Made by a program: the position numbers. 64,000 nucleotides of DNA from an uncultured Gemmatimonadales bacterium (GTDB lineage: Bacteria > Gemmatimonadota > Gemmatimonadetes > Gemmatimonadales > GWC2-71-9): NCBI GenBank assembly GCA_963739455.1, contig CAVUAK010000003.1:192001-256000 (forward strand), read 5' to 3'. Position 1 is the stretch's first letter. Each line of letters starts with the position of its first letter. This document shows positions 9,001 through 60,000 of the stretch, piece after piece.

Positions 9001-12000
9001 GGGTGAGAAGCACTGACCTGATCCTGCAATATCCTGGCAGCGAGGGTGCCGCGCAGGTCAGGCGGCAAGAGCCTGATGACGTCCCTGTTGACGGTGCGGA
9101 ACTCATATTCCCGTCCGTCGGCACCAGCGAAGCGAAGCGACCGGGGCTGTATGTCTCCCGTACTGTCATGCTCGACCGGATGCAGGCCTCCGGCAAAAGT
9201 GTCAAGGTCGAGAACCTCGATCCGCATGGGAGTGGTCCAGAGATCCCGGTAGTTGCTCCCCAGCAGCCAGCGATGCAGCCAGCCGGCACCGTAGCGAGGG
9301 CCGGCAACCACCGTCGCGCTGTCTGAGACAAGAGGGGCCGGGCTTTGCGCGTACACGGGCTGCGGCGCCAGACCTTGGGTCAAGACGGCCATCAGCACGC
9401 TCAATAATGCAAAGCACCCCGGCGCCGGAGTGGCGACGGGGTGCTGCTGTTTCGACGTGGGGCTTCCAGGGATTAGAACCGCCGGAACCCACCCTGACCG
9501 GGGTTGTAAACCCGATTGATCGCGATGGCGCCGCCATGGTGCGGGGCGCAGTTGTCATCGGGCATGCGGACCATGACACCGCTGCCGCCATGTGCGATGG
9601 TCTGGATCCTCGGGGGGTCGCCGCTGCCCATGGCTACAGCCGGGATGCTCGCGACCGTCTGCCCGGGGGCGAGCGCGTGCCCACCCCCTGCATGTGATTC
9701 CGCGGGTGGCGCGGCCGGCGCGTCGGGAACGACTTCCGGTGCCGGCGCCGGAGCCAGGTCCGTCGCCACCGCAGTTTCTTCGGTGGCGTTCGGACGCGGT
9801 ACCGCTGTCTTCACCTCGGTGACCAGGTGAACCTTGCCGCGACCCTTGCTCGCGGGCTTGGTCATCGACTTGCGCTCCACCGCCGAAAGAACCAGTGGCT
9901 CCGCCGCCGGCTGCGACGCGCCCAGATTCAGGTCGCGACCCGCACCGGCGCCTGCCGAGTTGACCGCTTCACGGTCGTTGCTGCATGAAACGAGAAGCAG
10001 TGCTGCAATTGCGGCGGGAAATAGCTTGCGCATGGACCGACCCTCCCAACGAATCATTCGTACTAAGTGCATTAGCAAGAATGGGGACGTCTCGAGTCCC
10101 GCGCAAGCACACAGCCGCGCTACACCAGTCGCAAGTCAGCCTCACGCACCCGATCCGCCGCAACGTCCAAGTGGCCACACCAGTCGTCGATCGCCCGCAG
10201 CAACTCGTTCGCGACCAGGGTGAACTCCGTAGCCTTCTGGTGAAAGGTTGTGAGCCAGGCCAGGCGCTCGCACCGGGCCTCCACCACGTCGCCAGCGGCA
10301 CGCAGCGCGGACCAGGCCTCGGGTTCGAGCAGCGCGGCGAGCCCGCCGGCCGCCTCGCGTTCAGCCCGGAACCGCGGCAGGAACCGTTCCCTCAGGTACG
10401 TCACCGCACGCGCGCGATCCCACACTGTCGCCGACTCGGCGCAGGCGGGCCTGAAGGCGTGTCGGGTCTCGGCGAGCCACAGGGCATGGATGGCCGGCAT
10501 GGTGGTCATATAGCCGGCCCTCCACTCCCGATGTCACGCTGCCGCACGACGTGCCAGTTCGGACAGAACCCACAGATGCCCGTCGCTACAAAGACGAGCC
10601 CGAGCAGGGTGAGATAGCGCCACGGTACCGGCAGTGCCCCATAAAAACCGAGCAGCCCCACGCCGACGACCGTCCTGAAGATTCGTTCCAACCACCTCAT
10701 GTCCGGCGTCATATCTTGCCTCCACAGCCAATGCCCAGGACATGTTAGCACGGAGGGTATGAAGCACCGGTGGGGCCATCGTGAAGGACTATTGGGTGGA
10801 TCGCTCGCGACCGCGAGGGTCGTTGGTCTGGTGATCGCGCGCAGCTAGCGCGTCAACCGACAATGTCGACGTCGCCGGGGGCGACGACGACGTCCCCGTG
10901 GCCCTCCACCTCCACCGTGATGCGGTCGATCAGCGGATCGCTGCTGTGCCGCTGAATACGGCTGACCTCCACGATCGTGCCGGTCTTCCCGCTGACGCGG
11001 GGGACCCCCGTCTTCACGATCTTGACCGTGGTTCCCGGAATACAACGATCGATGTGCGCCATGGGCCCCTCGGATAGGAGGATCTGGGCGAAAACTCGTC
11101 TTGCGTACCTGTCAATTATATGATACATCTTTAGTGTCAAGTCAACCTGACACTAGGGGTAACGTGACGGCCTTTCCTCCCATCTCCAGCGATTCCCTGA
11201 TTTCCCCGGCACCGGTCATCCGCCCAAGGCGGCGCCGGAGGTCGGAGGCCATTCGCGGCCTGGTCCGCGAGCACCGGCTGCACCAATCGCAGCTGATTGC
11301 CCCGCTGTTCGTTTGTCACGGGCGCAACGTGCGGCGTGAGGTAGCCTCGATGCCGGGTGTCTTCCAGCTGTCGCTCGACGCGCTCGAGGCGGCGGCGGAC
11401 GGGCTGGTCGAGGCGGGAATTCAATCGGTCATCCTGTTCGGGCTGCCCGAGTTCAAGGACGACGTCGGGTCGGAAAACTTTGATCCAGAAGGGATCATCC
11501 CCCAGGCGCTGATGCGACTGAGACGCCGTCATCCCTCGCTCTGCCTCATCACCGACCTCTGTTGCTGCGAATACACCGACCACGGACACTGCGGCATCCT
11601 CCGGGGCGAGGAGGTCGACAACGACGCGACGCTCGAGATCCTGGGCCGCGCCGCTGTCGCGCACGCCGAGGCCGGTGCCGACATCGTGGCGCCGAGCGGC
11701 ATGATGGATGGGATGGTGCGCGCCATTCGCGCCGCGCTCGACGGAGCGGGACAGGCGGAGTGTGGCATCCTCAGCTATGCGGTGAAGTACGCCAGCGGCT
11801 TCTATGGACCATTCCGCGATGCCGCCGGCAGCACGCCCTCCTTCGGTGATCGCAAGCAGTACCAGATGGACCCTGCCAATGTGCGCGAGGCGATCCAGGA
11901 GGCACGGCTCGACGAAGCCGAGGGTGCCGACATGCTCATGGTGAAGCCGGCGCTTGCCTATCTCGACGTGCTCGCCACGGTGCGGCGCGAGACCACCCTT

Positions 12001-57000: not shown

Positions 57001-60000
57001 TGCCACCTGAGGCCGCCGAGGGCTGCCGGTTCTTCGGAACTGGCGTGAGCCTGGTGGTGCATCCCCGGAGTCCGCGTATCCCCACGGTGCACCTCAATGT
57101 CCGCTATTTCGAGCTCACCAACCCCGCTGGCGACGTAATCGATGCCTGGTTCGGGGGCGGGACCGACCTGACGCCGACGTACCCGACGCCAGACGACGCC
57201 CGGCACTTTCATCGGGTGCTGGCGGAGACGTGTGCCCGCCACGATGCGGGGTATTACCCCAGGTTCAAGGGGTGGTGCGACCGGTATTTCCGGAACACCC
57301 ATCGGGACAACGAGGCGCGTGGTGTGGGGGGAATCTTCTTTGACCACCTGCGAGTGGCCGAACACGGATTTGAGCCGCTGATGGCGTTCGCGGGTGCGGT
57401 GGGTCGGGTGCTGCCCGAGGCCTATGGTCCGATCGTGGACCGCTGGCGCGGAGCCCCCTACGGCGAGTCCGAGCGCCGGCTCCAGCTGTTCCGGCGCGGT
57501 CGCTATGTTGAATTCAACCTTTTGCACGACCGGGGCACTACTTTCGGTCTCCAGAGTGGAGCCCGGACTGAGAGCGTCCTCATGAGCCTCCCCCCACTGG
57601 CACGGTGGGACACCGATGCCGCGATGGAGTCCGATGCCCTGGCCCAGGCGCTCCGCGCCATGCTCGTCCCTCAAGATTGGCTTGCCCCGACCTGAATCTG
57701 CGTCATGTGTCTTGACATGACGGTGTCAACGCGGCATTACATACGAGCCTATGTCCGGTAACCATCCAAGCCCTGCCTTTGGCACGGCTGACCTTACCAA
57801 CTGCGATCGGGAACTCATTCAGCTCCCCGGCTCCGTTCAGCCGCACGGGGTCCTGCTGATCCTGCATCCTGAGCACCTGCGCGTCCTGCAGGCCTCCTCG
57901 AATGCCGAGGCGATCCTGGGTTCGTGGGGGGCATCGCCGCTGGGCAAGACCATCGATTCCCTGGACCCTGAGCTCGGTCTGCTGATCCGCCGCCTTCGGC
58001 ACAGCGACGAGCTGGCGGGGATCGTGCCTGCCGTGGCCCGTGCCGAGGATGAGAATGGGGTCCGGACGCTGGAGGCGATGATCCACCGGCTTCCCCGCGA
58101 GGGCATCGCCGTTGAGCTCGAGCCGGTGGCGCCCGACCCGGCAGGACGCTCGGCCGCTGAGGTGGCGCGGCAGGTATCCCAGATGCTCACCGATGGGATC
58201 GCTGCCATCAGCGTGGCGCCATCCCATGCGGCCCTGTATGGCGAGGTTGTGCGCGTCATGCGCGCCCTCTGCGGGTACGATCGCGTGATGGTGTACAAGT
58301 TTGATCCTGAGGGACACGGCGAAATCGTCGGCGAGGCGCGCCTCAACGACCTCGAGCCCTTCCTCGGCCTGCACTATCCCTCGAGCGACATTCCGCATCA
58401 GGCACGCGAGCTCTACCTGCGCAACCGGGTCCGCGTGCTGGTCGATGTCTCGTACCAGCCGGCGCAGCTCTTCCCGCGGCTCTCACCGATCACCGGAGCG
58501 GAAGTGGACATGTCGATGTCCTCGCTCCGCAGCATGTCGCCGCTGCACTTGCAATACCTCTCGAACATGGGTGTTCGCGCCACGCTGGTGACCTCGCTCG
58601 CCATCGGCGACCGGCTCTGGGGCCTGATTGCCTGTCACCACTATGCGCCCCGCTGGCTGCCGTACGAGGTGCGCGCCGCCGCCGGTATCCTGTCCGAGAT
58701 GGTGGCAGCGCGTCTTGCGGCTCTCGACAGCGTCGCGGCGACCGAGACGGAACACATCGTCCGCACCCTGGAGGACCAGGTGGTGGACTCGCTGGCTACC
58801 ACCGGCGACTGGCGCAATGCGCTGTTCGCCACGCCGCACCTGCTCCTGCAGACCGTGCGCGCGACCGGTGCTGCGCTGGTGCACGACGGGGCCCTCATCA
58901 CCACCGGCGAAGTGCCGTCGTCGGACGACATCCGGGCCGTGGTGCGCTGGCTGGAGGAGCAGCATCCCGGCGAGCCGGTGGTGCGAAGTGACGCGATGAG
59001 TCGCTCGGAGCCAACCCTCCGGCACATCGCAGGAGCGGCTGCCGGCGTGATGGCCATCGCGCTGTCGGCCAGGTCGCGAGACTACCTGCTCTGGTTCCGT
59101 CCGGAACAGCACCAGACGATCCGGTGGGCCGGTGACCCGCGCAAGCCGGTCGACCCCAATGACCCGAAGCAGCTGTCGCCGCGACGCTCCTTCGCGGTGT
59201 GGACCGAGGTGACGCGCGGCTCCTGCCGGCCGTGGACCGAGTCCGAAGAGGGCACGGCGCGCGCGATCCGCTCGTCGCTGGTGGACATGGTGCAGCAGGT
59301 GCAGGCGGTGCGGGTGCTGATCGCGCAGGAGCAGTTCTCGCGCATGATGCAGGTGGTGCAGCTCGCGTCCGAACCCACGCTCATCATGAGCCGCGCGGGC
59401 CAGGTCGTGCTGGTGAACGACGCCTTCCGGGCACTGCTGGGGCCGATGCCCACCGACCTGACGTCGGCCGAGGACCTGTCGCGGCTGCTGGGAGATGACG
59501 GCGCGGTGAACGCCATGCTCACGGCGGTGCGGGCGGAGCAGCGTCCGTGGGCCGGGGAGCTGCTCCTCACGACGCCGGACGGTGAGCGGGTGCCGCTCGC
59601 GGTGCGGGCTGATCCGGTGCCGGGCGATGACGGGATGGAACTGGGCTGCATCATCTTCGCGTCCGACGAGCGTCCGCGCCGGAAGGCGGAGGCGGCGCAG
59701 CAGCGCGTGCAGGACAGCCTGCTCGAGGCGCATCGTCGCTCGACCCGCTCCACACCCGTCGACGCGGACACGGCGCGCGGTTTCGGCGCGATGATGGATG
59801 CGATCCTGAGCACGGCGCGCCGTTCGTTCACGGACATCAGCGGCGAACCAGGAACGCACCCGCTGCCCTCGGCGCTGGCGAGCGTCGAGGACATGACGCG
59901 CCGCGCCGCCGCGATGGCGCTGCACCTCGAGGGGTATACGGCGGCGCGCCGCAAGCGGCAGTCCGTGGTCGTGAAGGATCCCGCTGGCGGGTCAGGGCAG

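Follow-up and report, generated by a model that had tools for sequence, protein, structure and literature searches.

The window, a stretch of 64,000 nucleotides from one contig of an uncultured Gemmatimonadales bacterium (GWC2-71-9; genome G000), holds a complete photosynthesis gene cluster (PGC) of about 46 kb, designated type 1, which extends from hemB at 11164 to hemF at 57695, as already stated in the initial annotation. The cluster and its flanks contain the following features:

3131..3205, plus strand: tRNA-Ile(GAT), 8 kb left of the cluster and not at the island edge; also in G002, G007 and G009
10856..11059, minus strand: w10853, a 68-aa gene with no Pfam family, divergent from hemB
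11110..11152: pair of putative PpsR-type boxes upstream of hemB
11164..12189, plus strand: hemB, porphobilinogen synthase, left end of the cluster
12186..14907, plus strand: hemL and hemY (protoporphyrinogen oxidase)
14904..16798, plus strand: crtB-like phytoene synthase and SAM methyltransferase (the latter at 15812-16798)
16795..20275, plus strand: bchI, bchD, puhE
20340..20383: second pair of putative PpsR-type boxes, upstream of bchC
20414..25401, plus strand: bchC, bchX, bchY, bchZ, grouping with G002/G003/G004 (family-native), not with Gemmatimonadaceae
25398..26282, minus strand: bchO
26374..26505, plus strand: pufB, 43 aa
26534..26695, plus strand: pufA2, predicted outer-ring (LHh) alpha chain
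26791..27006, plus strand: pufA1, LH1 alpha
27128..27961, plus strand: pufL
27974..29395, plus strand: pufM, 473 aa, with a C-terminal OmpA-family domain (residues 367-463)
29392..30651, plus strand: pufC, reaction-centre cytochrome
30732..34067, minus strand: puhC, puhB, split H subunit (puhA2 31857-32399, puhA1 32396-32599), lhaA
34075..35462, minus strand: acsF and a 108-aa upstream gene, between bchM and lhaA
35474..44060, minus strand: bchM, bchL, bchH, bchB, bchN, bchF
44400..46648, plus strand: B12-binding regulator and ppsR
46702..52724, plus strand: bchG, pucC, frhB-like, bchP, crtE-like, tspO; one frame break near 52345
52705..57695, plus strand: hemA, hemC, hemD, hemE, hemF
57751..60009, plus strand: bphP, bacteriophytochrome, part of the mobile unit
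60158..63894: right flank with a 144-aa gene, TonB-dependent receptor and arginase, collinear in G002 C172, G006, G007, G008 and G009

The B12-binding regulator beside ppsR is presumably AerR-like, and TGT-N12-ACA was taken by us to be the PpsR box motif. Pairs of such boxes occur only twice in the whole genome, upstream of hemB and of bchC, and degenerate copies of the hemB-side pair lie at the left edge of the scars (see below) in G002 and G006. The hemB of the PGC is the only one found in genus g1. The frame breaks in hemL-hemY (~13150 to ~13740, mapped with the reading frames of G009) are probably assembly indels. As bphP is present in G009 and, beside the M16 peptidase gene, in the g13 genome G397, and is absent from the scars, the right limit of the island was moved to about 60050, past the one given before. 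On the left, w10853 travels with the type-1 cluster (87-91% identity to core g1, 67-70% to three g13 copies beside hemB and 54-58% to G003/G004/G032). No integrase, transposase or plasmid replicon was found among the 59 window ORFs (NCBIfam; 35 also Pfam), and GC3 gives no signature (cluster versus flank, 0.854/0.827 in G000 and 0.867/0.831 in G002).

The genes present account for tetrapyrrole formation by the C5 pathway, for making bacteriochlorophyll a with AcsF as the oxygen-dependent cyclase, and for a reaction centre of type II (L, M, C and split H) with an LH1 ring. By analogy with the Gemmatimonas structures, the cluster would encode aerobic anoxygenic photoheterotrophy under PpsR control, with a second, outer antenna ring probably formed via PufA2. 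The best PDB matches are 7o0u/9h19 for PufM (627 and 613 bits; the next has 525) and 9h19_AA and 7o0u_AA (LHh-alpha) for PufA2, whose gene sits between pufB and pufA1; the bacteriochlorophyll ligand His29 is kept, while position 31 is Phe instead of Trp and position 15 Ala instead of Ser. No pufA2 was found in G002, G003, G004 or G032, and the gene is missing in type 2, f7 and G610. In the window puhA is split into puhA1 and puhA2 (67 and 180 aa), as in all 18 scored Gemmatimonadota rows; since these include type 2 and f7, the split is not specific to the double-ring photosystem.

The genome nearest to G000 is G002, with 95.3% identity over the host markers versus 66.5% over the cluster, which in G002 is of another type (type 2). 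For G000 and G009 the values are 93.5% and 92.1%. The clusters of G002 and G003/G004 share 77-78% at host values of 79-80%, all congeners being MAGs and G003 sharing only ~700 host columns. Cluster identity exceeds that of the host markers in only 3 of 30 pairs, those of G000/G009 against g13 (G000-g13, 75-76% versus 72.5-73.3%). In the photosystem subset, G000-G476 reach 70.2 at a host value of 68.2, and G476-G557 71.4 at 77.7. The identity contrasts reported previously were recovered: PufM (residues 1-308) of G000 is 97% identical to G009 and 72-73% to G002/G003/G032; the pair of g13 genomes reach 85-87%, and 11 of 13 Gemmatimonadaceae (f2) matches 79-84%, the lower PufM values of the initial annotation probably including the C-terminal tail. 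For PpsR the identity is 92% with G009, 86-87% with G006/G008, 57-60% with the copies in type-2 clusters and 51-56% with f2, whereas BchH is closer to f2 (66 versus 61%). Earlier genome handles were matched to the present ones (G018=G002, G092=G009, G271=G004, G246=G003, G022=G032, G186/G219=G006/G008) from contig coordinates and identities (for G002, the same C41/C172 positions; for G004, pufL at a contig end).

The host tree is ((g8,g13), ... ((g23,g76),(G032,(G004,(G003,G005),(G011,(G010,((G009,(G000,G002)),(G001,G006,G007,G008)))))))), in which G002 is nested among type-1 carriers as the sister of G000 (AU rejects its exclusion, delta lnL 128, p 2e-7). The AU test on host markers also rejects core g1 + g13 (delta lnL 849) and G002 + G003/G004/G005 (841). 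Of the 10 informative modules of the cluster, all 10 reject a monophyletic genus. The proposal that two PGC types occur in one genus and that the cluster was exchanged laterally within the phylum is supported. The PufL+M+C tree now includes the previously missing outgroup (8 proteobacterial rows; G004 was dropped for coverage), with an outcome in favour of the finding, as monophyly is again rejected both for the genus rows (delta lnL 404, p 2e-61) and for the family rows (delta lnL 224, p 2e-8). Contrary to what had been claimed, the two lineages are not unrelated: in the PufLMC tree all rows from Gemmatimonadota come together in a single clade apart from Proteobacteria (100/100), and the split puhA is shared. 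Nor does G610 belong to the second type, since rooted trees place G610/G568 on the opposite side from type 2 + f7, and their genes are arranged as in subtype II. Type 2 and f7 form a clade for photosystem genes (94/97 in PufL+M+C; 98 in the mixture-model tree), a grouping that speaks against the history proposed below unless one more transfer took place or the root is wrongly set.

The description of the window cluster as Gemmatimonas-type holds for only part of it. The contiguous puf and puhC/puhB/puhA/lhaA block groups with Gemmatimonadaceae: PufL/M/C fall in their double-ring clade (100/99 for PufLMC; 100 in the mixture-model tree), and in the mixture-model tree of eight photosystem genes type 1 groups with g79 + g86 at 100. 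Grouping of type 1 with f2 is, on the other hand, rejected for bchCXYZ (p 8.5e-5) and bchMLBNF (p 3e-8) and is not the best tree for AcsF or PpsR, although for PpsR the AU test does not reject it (p 0.09); BchH, with a tree closer to f2, is the exception among the pigment and regulator genes. PpsR had been placed inside Gemmatimonadaceae as well; instead, the core-g1 sequences, relics included, form one clade (100/99) that groups with g13 only (99/99). Monophyly of g13 PpsR is not rejected (p 0.08-0.14), and thus the donor may be a stem relative; g13 is the nearest relative of type 1 in every module that includes it. Type 1 is a mosaic whose closest relatives belong to g13, another genus of this family, and its Gemmatimonas-like part is the photosystem block only (puf, puh, lhaA, pufA2; partly bchH). 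Among the deeper members of the genus, type 2 tracks the host phylogeny, and its hem genes group with g76 relics. The single exchange implied before is not supported. All modules but hemB agree with one shared history for the g13-to-g1 step and for G002; across families this shared history breaks, and the G032 cluster is itself a mosaic.

At the site of the window cluster (site A), G002 retains only a truncated type-1 ppsR (C172:5212-6336, 78% identical to G000) between the same flanking genes, collinear on both sides. This scar shows that the G002 line once held type 1. The second copy (C41:35836-37164, 57%) lies in the type-2 cluster, and the two are not sisters (delta lnL 250, p 1e-40); together with the position of G002 beside G000, this bears out the replacement that had been postulated. 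What remains in the scars of G002, G006, G007 and G008 is ppsR, and 11 of 401 family genomes keep it without puf genes (dN/dS 0.08-0.25).

The type-2 cluster of G002 lies between luxR and the M16 gene (site B). Among the 9 g1 genomes that gave an M16 match, 7 have nothing inserted there. In 7 of 7 empty sites a GCAACC-N15-17-CGTA motif lies 2-7 bases or less from the luxR stop; in G004 the motif precedes M16. The left junction in G002 carries a degenerate left half of the motif (a resemblance of only ~13 bases) and the right one the ribosome-binding region, as one insertion would leave. G002 has one luxR and one M16 gene (C41-C55 exact overlap, 70 bases), and no donor-derived tract was found in its flanks at 350-base resolution. 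In G003, G004 and G032, site B is likewise occupied by type-2 clusters or their hem genes; in G397, G096 and G145, clusters or relics adjoin the M16 gene.

We consider a history in four steps to be probable, if far from certain, in which a hybrid type 1 entered the genus and G002 lost it and regained type 2. Two deep PGC lineages in family f1 would have followed the host split, with type 2 on the g76/g22/g1 side and type 1 on the g13 side. The g13-side ancestor may then have acquired the block for a double-ring photosystem (puf, puh, lhaA, possibly acsF and bchH), with some lineage of Gemmatimonadaceae as the source, making type 1 a hybrid. Next, the whole hybrid cluster with w10853 and bphP would have passed from a g13-related donor to the ancestor of G010 + core g1, landing at site A; the incongruence is observed, and the direction is our reading, by which type 2 is probably native to the genus and type 1 the immigrant. 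Finally, type 1 would have been deleted several times, leaving ppsR behind. For G002 the scar and the second site are observed; as to their order, this line most likely lost type 1 and then regained the single-ring type 2, which may have come from an unsampled deep member of the genus and entered at site B. Under this history, re-insertion at the ancestral site B is a coincidence, and the type-2 cluster of G002 is as far from those of G003/G004 as the hosts are, which vertical descent also predicts.

Both of these points would be explained without coincidence if the core-g1 ancestor, or a polymorphic population, held both types after type 1 reached site A, native type 2 having stayed at site B in the G002 line throughout, with G000/G009 keeping type 1, G002 type 2 and the others neither. 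The scar, as evidence that type 1 was formerly in the G002 line, fits as well. We nevertheless think this rather unlikely, because at least four independent clean deletions are needed (G010; G001/G006/G007/G008; G009; G000), all ending within 2-7 bases of the luxR stop unless an empty allele swept across species, G002 lacks the M16 promoter-like motif present in all 7 empty sites and G004, and none of the 401 genomes has two pufM matches.

It is improbable that type 1, with its double ring, is ancestral to the order (f1 + f2), and that type 2, with a single-ring photosystem block from an f7-like donor, entered G032, G003/G004 and G002 separately. The type 2 + f7 clade would agree with it, as would type 1 being sister to g79 + g86 and not inside them in the mixture-model tree, 'f2 without g109' not being rejected (p 0.49, PufL+M+C), and the bchCXYZ of G032 grouping with f7. 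However, type 2 has the proteobacterial gene order (acsF follows puhC in 11 of 11 outgroup loci showing acsF), its AcsF, encoded within the block, fails to join f7 (p 4e-4), the identity of its photosystem genes to f7 (62.6%) does not exceed that of the host markers (63.0%), and the closer identity of the G000 cluster than of its host genes to g13 is left unexplained. Even less probable is that the whole cluster of G000 is a Gemmatimonadaceae-type lineage unrelated to that of its congeners: PufLMC, puh/lhaA, pufA2, the derived acsF-lhaA order and BchH speak for it, but the module trees largely refute it, with its rejection for the two bch blocks, g13 nearest in every module and one origin of both types. 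Hardly credible, finally, is that the type-2 contigs are foreign to the genus, a worry raised at the outset: the MAGs of G002, G003 and G004 are fragmented, with 200-370 contigs and 2-3% contamination, but both ends of the G002 cluster contig C41 run into genus-level genes that adjoin each other in 7 congeners (four genes 57-89% identical to G000 C3:424126-426968 at its start, the next gene at 97% at its end), C172 is collinear with both window flanks and the hem contigs of G003/G004 carry the same site-B genes, so that for G002 only a chimeric contig with two false joins would do.

The presence of two cluster versions at two chromosomal sites in G000 and its nearest known relative suggests gain, loss and replacement of whole light-harvesting kits inside one Gemmatimonadota genus, and the swap between types predicts a switch between double-ring and single-ring antennae. 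More speculatively, and with considerable doubt on our side, the PGC (with the sole g1 hemB) could be a recurrently cycling element, with transient carriage of two complete clusters differing in antenna design, swaps between sister species and an orphan repressor PpsR kept under selection after each loss for a new job (e.g., haem uptake), the old copy of G002, a genome that received a second PpsR, having lost its DNA-binding end. Whole-PGC transfer is already known in Proteobacteria; for Gemmatimonadota, vertical inheritance is assumed in the literature, and a swap between sister species runs against this.

In the sections consulted of Zheng et al. 2022 (PMC9426454), PGC subtypes I and II are treated as order-level, vertical descent from one ancestral acquisition is concluded, and Gemmatimonadales do not all cluster in PufL/PufM trees; the only genome of Gemmatimonadales found there with subtype I belongs to GWC2-71-9, and a second genome from GWC2-71-9, but from another genus, has subtype II. 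Subtype II corresponds to the window order (acsF next to lhaA; here acsF ends at 34075 and lhaA starts at 34067), subtype I to G002, G003, G032 and f7. The bchFNBHLM, pufBALMC and bchCXYZ blocks are all in the window, the first opposite to the last; the place directly upstream of bchC, taken by crtF in subtype II, is not so occupied here (puhE ends at 20275, bchC starts at 20414), and the methyltransferase, which has no assigned role, lies further upstream at 15812-16798. Those sections report neither both types in one genus, nor a hybrid cluster, ppsR relics or sister species with a reciprocal scar and empty site. With the RC-dLH of Gemmatimonas phototrophica and Gem. groenlandica (7o0u, 9h19), which has extrinsic RC-S and RC-U polypeptides according to an excerpt of PMC8849296, the window shares the split puhA, PufA2 His29 and its best PufM/PufA2 matches; unlike these, it lies outside Gemmatimonadaceae, with Phe31/Ala15 for Trp31/Ser15 and an OmpA domain on PufM. 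Where PMC12817894, as excerpted, links pufA2 and split puhA as early traits, here the split is phylum-wide and pufA2 missing in type 2, f7 and G610. Incongruence between PGC and species trees is also described in Rhodobacteraceae, as far as the consulted part of Brinkmann et al. 2018 (PMC6052148) goes, with loss and then replacement inferred for Rhodobacter capsulatus and the cluster evolving almost as one unit, with plasmid replicons as vector. Our case differs in the phylum, in modular mosaicism across families, in the lack of a replicon among the scanned window ORFs, and in sister species showing a physical scar and a second site that is empty. Two PGC types likewise occur within the genus Bradyrhizobium (Avontuur et al. 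2023, PMC10569730, in the portion available), through several horizontal acquisitions, its ancestor having had no PGC; here, by contrast, one type seems to displace another, twice, and the predicted antenna architecture changes with it.

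The photosynthesis gene cluster (PGC) of the window (G000:C3:192001-256000) is uninterrupted. Based on NCBIfam and Pfam scans, it consists of the following segments, with positions counted from the window start:

Left arm, in gene order: hemB-hemL-hemY-crtB-methyltransferase-bchID-puhE-bchCXYZ, bchO, pufB-A2-A1-L-M-C
Opposite strand, after pufC: puhC-puhB-puhA2-puhA1-lhaA-acsF-(108 aa)-bchMLHBNF
Right arm: aerR-like-ppsR-bchG-pucC-frhB-like-bchP-crtE-tspO-hemACDEF-bphP
11164-14907 and 52705-57695: hem genes of the cluster
26374-34067: contiguous block of puf, puh and lhaA
26534-26695: pufA2
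27974-29395: pufM

Mapping with the reading frames of the congener G009 revealed frame breaks in hemL, hemY and tspO, which are probably assembly indels, since rpoB and atpD are likewise split in the source genome (G000). Paired TGT-N12-ACA boxes occur only twice in this genome, upstream of hemB and of bchC. No crtF was found ahead of bchC (20275-20414), and the differing cluster of several congeners holds about 2.1 kb at the matching place. A tRNA-Arg called by ARAGORN at 24222-24292 is probably spurious, as it lies inside bchZ and was not reproduced in G009, and a tRNA integration site was discarded because the tRNA-Ile is 8 kb off and shared with relatives.

A pufM gene was identified in 4/12 genomes of the genus (a fifth, G004, shows pufL at a contig end), in 7/401 family genomes and in 21/401 phylum genomes. 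Two types of cluster can be distinguished. Type 1, that of the window (G000, G009, G249, G397), has acsF adjoining lhaA, two pufA genes and a PufM-OmpA fusion. Type 2 (the congeners G002, G003 and G032, and G004 as far as assembled) has a single pufA; neither family nor protein searches recovered pufA2 in these four, and acsF follows puhC in G002, G003 and G032. Given that the type-2 order was found in 11/11 proteobacterial loci showing acsF, the type-1 order is derived. This derived acsF-lhaA order is common to type 1 and family f2, which was equated with Gemmatimonadaceae based on the named Gemmatimonas and Gemmatimonadaceae loci among its rows. From kinship codes and PMC10581226, we infer that the family of the window (f1) is GWC2-71-9 and that f7 is a Longimicrobiales family. 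In g109, a genus of f2 (G610, G568; L166, L167, L201, L202), the subtype II order is combined with PufM-OmpA; pufA2 is missing in G610, the G568 contig ends before its place, and the reaction-centre genes of both represent a third lineage.

The host tree was based on 19 ribosomal-operon proteins, five atp-locus genes and the M16 peptidase (5,097 columns), with RpoB and RpoC dropped because they are missing or partial in several congeners. G568 has no markers in common with the other f2 rows, was misplaced in this tree and was left out of the 24-row AU tests. G002 is the sister of G000 (support 0.985), followed by G009, while G003, G004 and G032 branch deeper and g13, another genus of the family, lies in a separate clade. 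In the AU tests, in which small lnL differences are approximate, excluding G002 from the type-1 carriers was rejected (delta lnL 128, p 2e-7), as was joining G002 with G003/G004/G005 (delta lnL 841) or the core of the genus (g1) with g13 (delta lnL 849). The clusters of G000 and G002 are 66.5% identical (22 proteins, 8,476 positions) versus a host identity of 95.3%; for G000 and G009, the values are 92.1% versus 93.5%.

The initial annotation had proposed that G002 directly documents a replacement, and the genomic sites bear this out: this sister of G000 retains a scar with only ppsR at the site of the window's cluster (site A) and carries a complete type-2 cluster between luxR and an M16 peptidase gene (site B). 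The pattern is reciprocal: in G000, the cluster sits at A, and B is the empty site. At site A of G002, window position 11153 is joined to 45206 and 46356 to 60082, and the scar PpsR (380 aa) has no C-terminal helix-turn-helix; G006 (11154 joined to 45181) and G008 (11073 joined to 45121) both have a full-length ppsR. Mis-binning, a possibility also raised at the outset, is very unlikely. The cluster contig of G002, C41, starts with genes 57-89% identical to G000 C3:424126-426968, ends with the next gene of that row, the M16 peptidase, at 97%, and overlaps the contig with the remainder of this gene by an exact 70 bases. Site B is empty, with the flanking genes adjacent and no cluster, in 7/9 genus genomes with an M16 match, and in G004 (L191, G004:C2) the M16 gene lies within the cluster, between hemL and bchI. 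A TonB receptor flanking site A has weak scores for haem-receptor families.

Regarding the origin of the G002 cluster, we lean towards re-acquisition of type 2 by insertion at site B. All seven empty B sites show GCAACC-N15-17-CGTA, which we take to be an ECF-type promoter, just past the luxR stop, and G004 has the same motif ahead of M16. In G002, the left junction holds a degenerate left half of this motif and, on the right, hemF stops a few bases ahead of the M16 start; a single insertion accounts for these junctions. Against this reading, site B is the ancestral site, no donor-derived flank was seen at site B of G002, and the divergence fits vertical descent. The alternative, double carriage with type 2 retained at site B in G002, seems rather unlikely, as it needs at least four matching deletions.

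Monophyly of the genus was rejected by AU in 10/10 informative module tests: PufLMC (p 2e-61, with the outgroup that the first tree had lacked), PpsR (p 1.3e-4) and, with small lnL differences being approximate, puh/lhaA (p 1e-6), AcsF (p 8e-7), BchCXYZ (p 9e-4), BchH (p 1e-36), BchMLBNF (p 8e-62), bchG-pucC-frhB-bchP (p 2e-6), bchID-puhE (p 5e-5) and hemACDEF (p 1e-6). One hemACDEF set, left out of this count, and the grouping of type 1 with f2 for hem had no suitable rows or root. The approximation arises because fast free searches were beaten by constrained trees (by 12 lnL for bchCXYZ and 0.7 for acsF), and it applies to all AU modules except PufLMC and PpsR monophyly, as well as to the 24-row host tests; the photosystem mixture-model tree is a quick version. 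G000 and G009 group with g13 in every module that includes it; in the alignment of pufB+pufA1, which is short, G397 is misplaced.

The two types had been described as unrelated lineages, which does not hold. Gemmatimonadota PufLMC form one clade versus the outgroups (100/100) and puhA is split in 18/18 Gemmatimonadota rows scored; thus, the types are deep sister lineages. Likewise, the link of type 1 to Gemmatimonadaceae is limited. It stands for the contiguous puf, puh and lhaA block and for BchH, where G032 joins the same group. A grouping of type 1 with f2 was rejected for BchCXYZ (p 8.5e-5), where type 1 groups with G002/G003/G004 (1.000), and for BchMLBNF (p 3e-8), and is not the best tree for PpsR (p 0.09) and AcsF (p 0.25), small lnL differences again being approximate. 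The modules bchID-puhE and bchG-bchP gave no clear signal for or against this link. The cluster of G032 (L139, L140, L192) is itself a mosaic, with bchCXYZ grouping with f7 and L081, BchH and bchMLBNF with f2, and PpsR and AcsF with type 2. HemB of G002 (L130:2910-3875) shares 71% identity with its counterpart in G032 but just 51-53% with the HemB proteins of G003, G004 and G000; the G002 cluster therefore differs in history between its left end and the rest.

Type 1 is probably the immigrant in the genus. Type 2 is present in the successive deep branches G032, G004 and G003, at or beside site B and with divergences near those of the hosts. The hem genes of type 2 fall together with relics of g76, which branches next in the host tree. 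Type 1 of the core genus is 75-76% identical to that of g13 versus 72.5-73.3% for host markers, and w10853, a gene linked to the cluster, is likewise closer to g13. The displaced ppsR of G010 falls in the type-1 clade of the core genus, so type 1 arrived before G010 branched off. In the photosystem block, G000 and G476 (f2) are 70.2% identical versus 71.4% for G557 and G476 within f2, with G000 at about twice the host distance, whereas the closeness of type 2 to f7 does not exceed that of its host. These values favour f2 as donor of the block and the line of g13 as recipient, but type 2 and f7 form a supported group, which makes the root less certain. By GC and GC3, neither cluster stands out as foreign. 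A hybrid cluster would have entered the genus from a related one, type 1 would have been lost repeatedly with ppsR spared, and a second replacement would have occurred in the sister species G002.

A ppsR gene is present in 19/401 family genomes, and 11 of these 19 (two of them just 60-64% complete) lack any puf match, nor is ppsR accompanied by bch genes in the loci that were read. These puf-less copies, together with the second copy of G002, lie at several differing sites (ppsR loci: L133, L148, L149, L150, L151, L152, L153, L154, L155, L158, L159, L160/L161). Pairwise dN/dS is 0.06 between the two intact type-1 clusters, 0.08-0.25 in the 11 pairs in which one or both members are relics and 0.12 for G006-G008, at dS 0.75-1.3 and including time within intact clusters. 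Exact paired boxes were found in 0/4 relic genomes (G006, G008, G010, G096), which counts against a simple conserved-box model of a new PpsR regulon. Genes for hem are kept alongside ppsR in G096, G216 and G288. Since hemB was found in 5/5 cluster carriers of the genus and 0/7 others, its non-phototrophic members may be unable to make haem.

PufM of the window (473 aa) has a C-terminal OmpA-family (peptidoglycan-binding) domain, which might anchor the reaction centre in the cell wall. In PMC12650329, such fusions were noted to be rare and perhaps due to erroneous gene models. The fusion is intact in eight genomes or loci (G000, G009, G249, G397, G630, G610, G568, L021) and is therefore no gene-model error; its spread is patchy in both f1 and f2. 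In the PDB, both PufM and PufA2 match the double-ring complexes of Gemmatimonas best. PufA2 has Phe31 and Ala15 versus Trp31 and Ser15 of Gemmatimonas, residues that PMC12817894 connects with absorption by the outer ring and with the binding of B800, and a differing outer-ring spectrum is predicted from these substitutions. In a Gemmatimonadaceae locus (L021:3122-4106), two pufB-pufA2 pairs precede pufA1, a possible further antenna duplication.

The finding of two types is real, with the emphasis shifted to a probable hybrid immigrant cluster, losses sparing ppsR and a second replacement. Phototrophy in the phylum has been attributed to a single ancient transfer, with vertical inheritance and losses thereafter and with two gene-order subtypes assigned to orders with one exception, and the tables place one genome per subtype in family GWC2-71-9, in differing genera (Zheng et al. 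2022, PMC9426454). The literature searched, which covered few subscription papers and no supplementary figures, yielded no report of ppsR relics, of a cluster swap inside a genus of the phylum or of a Gemmatimonadota genus with two PGC types. PGC traffic within the phylum has continued, reaching the level of species whose host markers are 95% identical, and the scar and the empty site are physical evidence beyond tree conflict alone. Moreover, a double-ring antenna gene is placed outside Gemmatimonadaceae, and G000 and G002 offer a natural comparison of almost identical hosts, with a double-ring photosystem predicted for the first and a single-ring one for the second. The case also cautions that pufM is unsafe as a taxonomic marker in Gemmatimonadota and that ppsR is no marker of phototrophy. 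Elsewhere, whole-PGC replacement is also documented in Rhodobacteraceae (PMC6052148), and Bradyrhizobium likewise holds two PGC types in one genus (PMC10569730).
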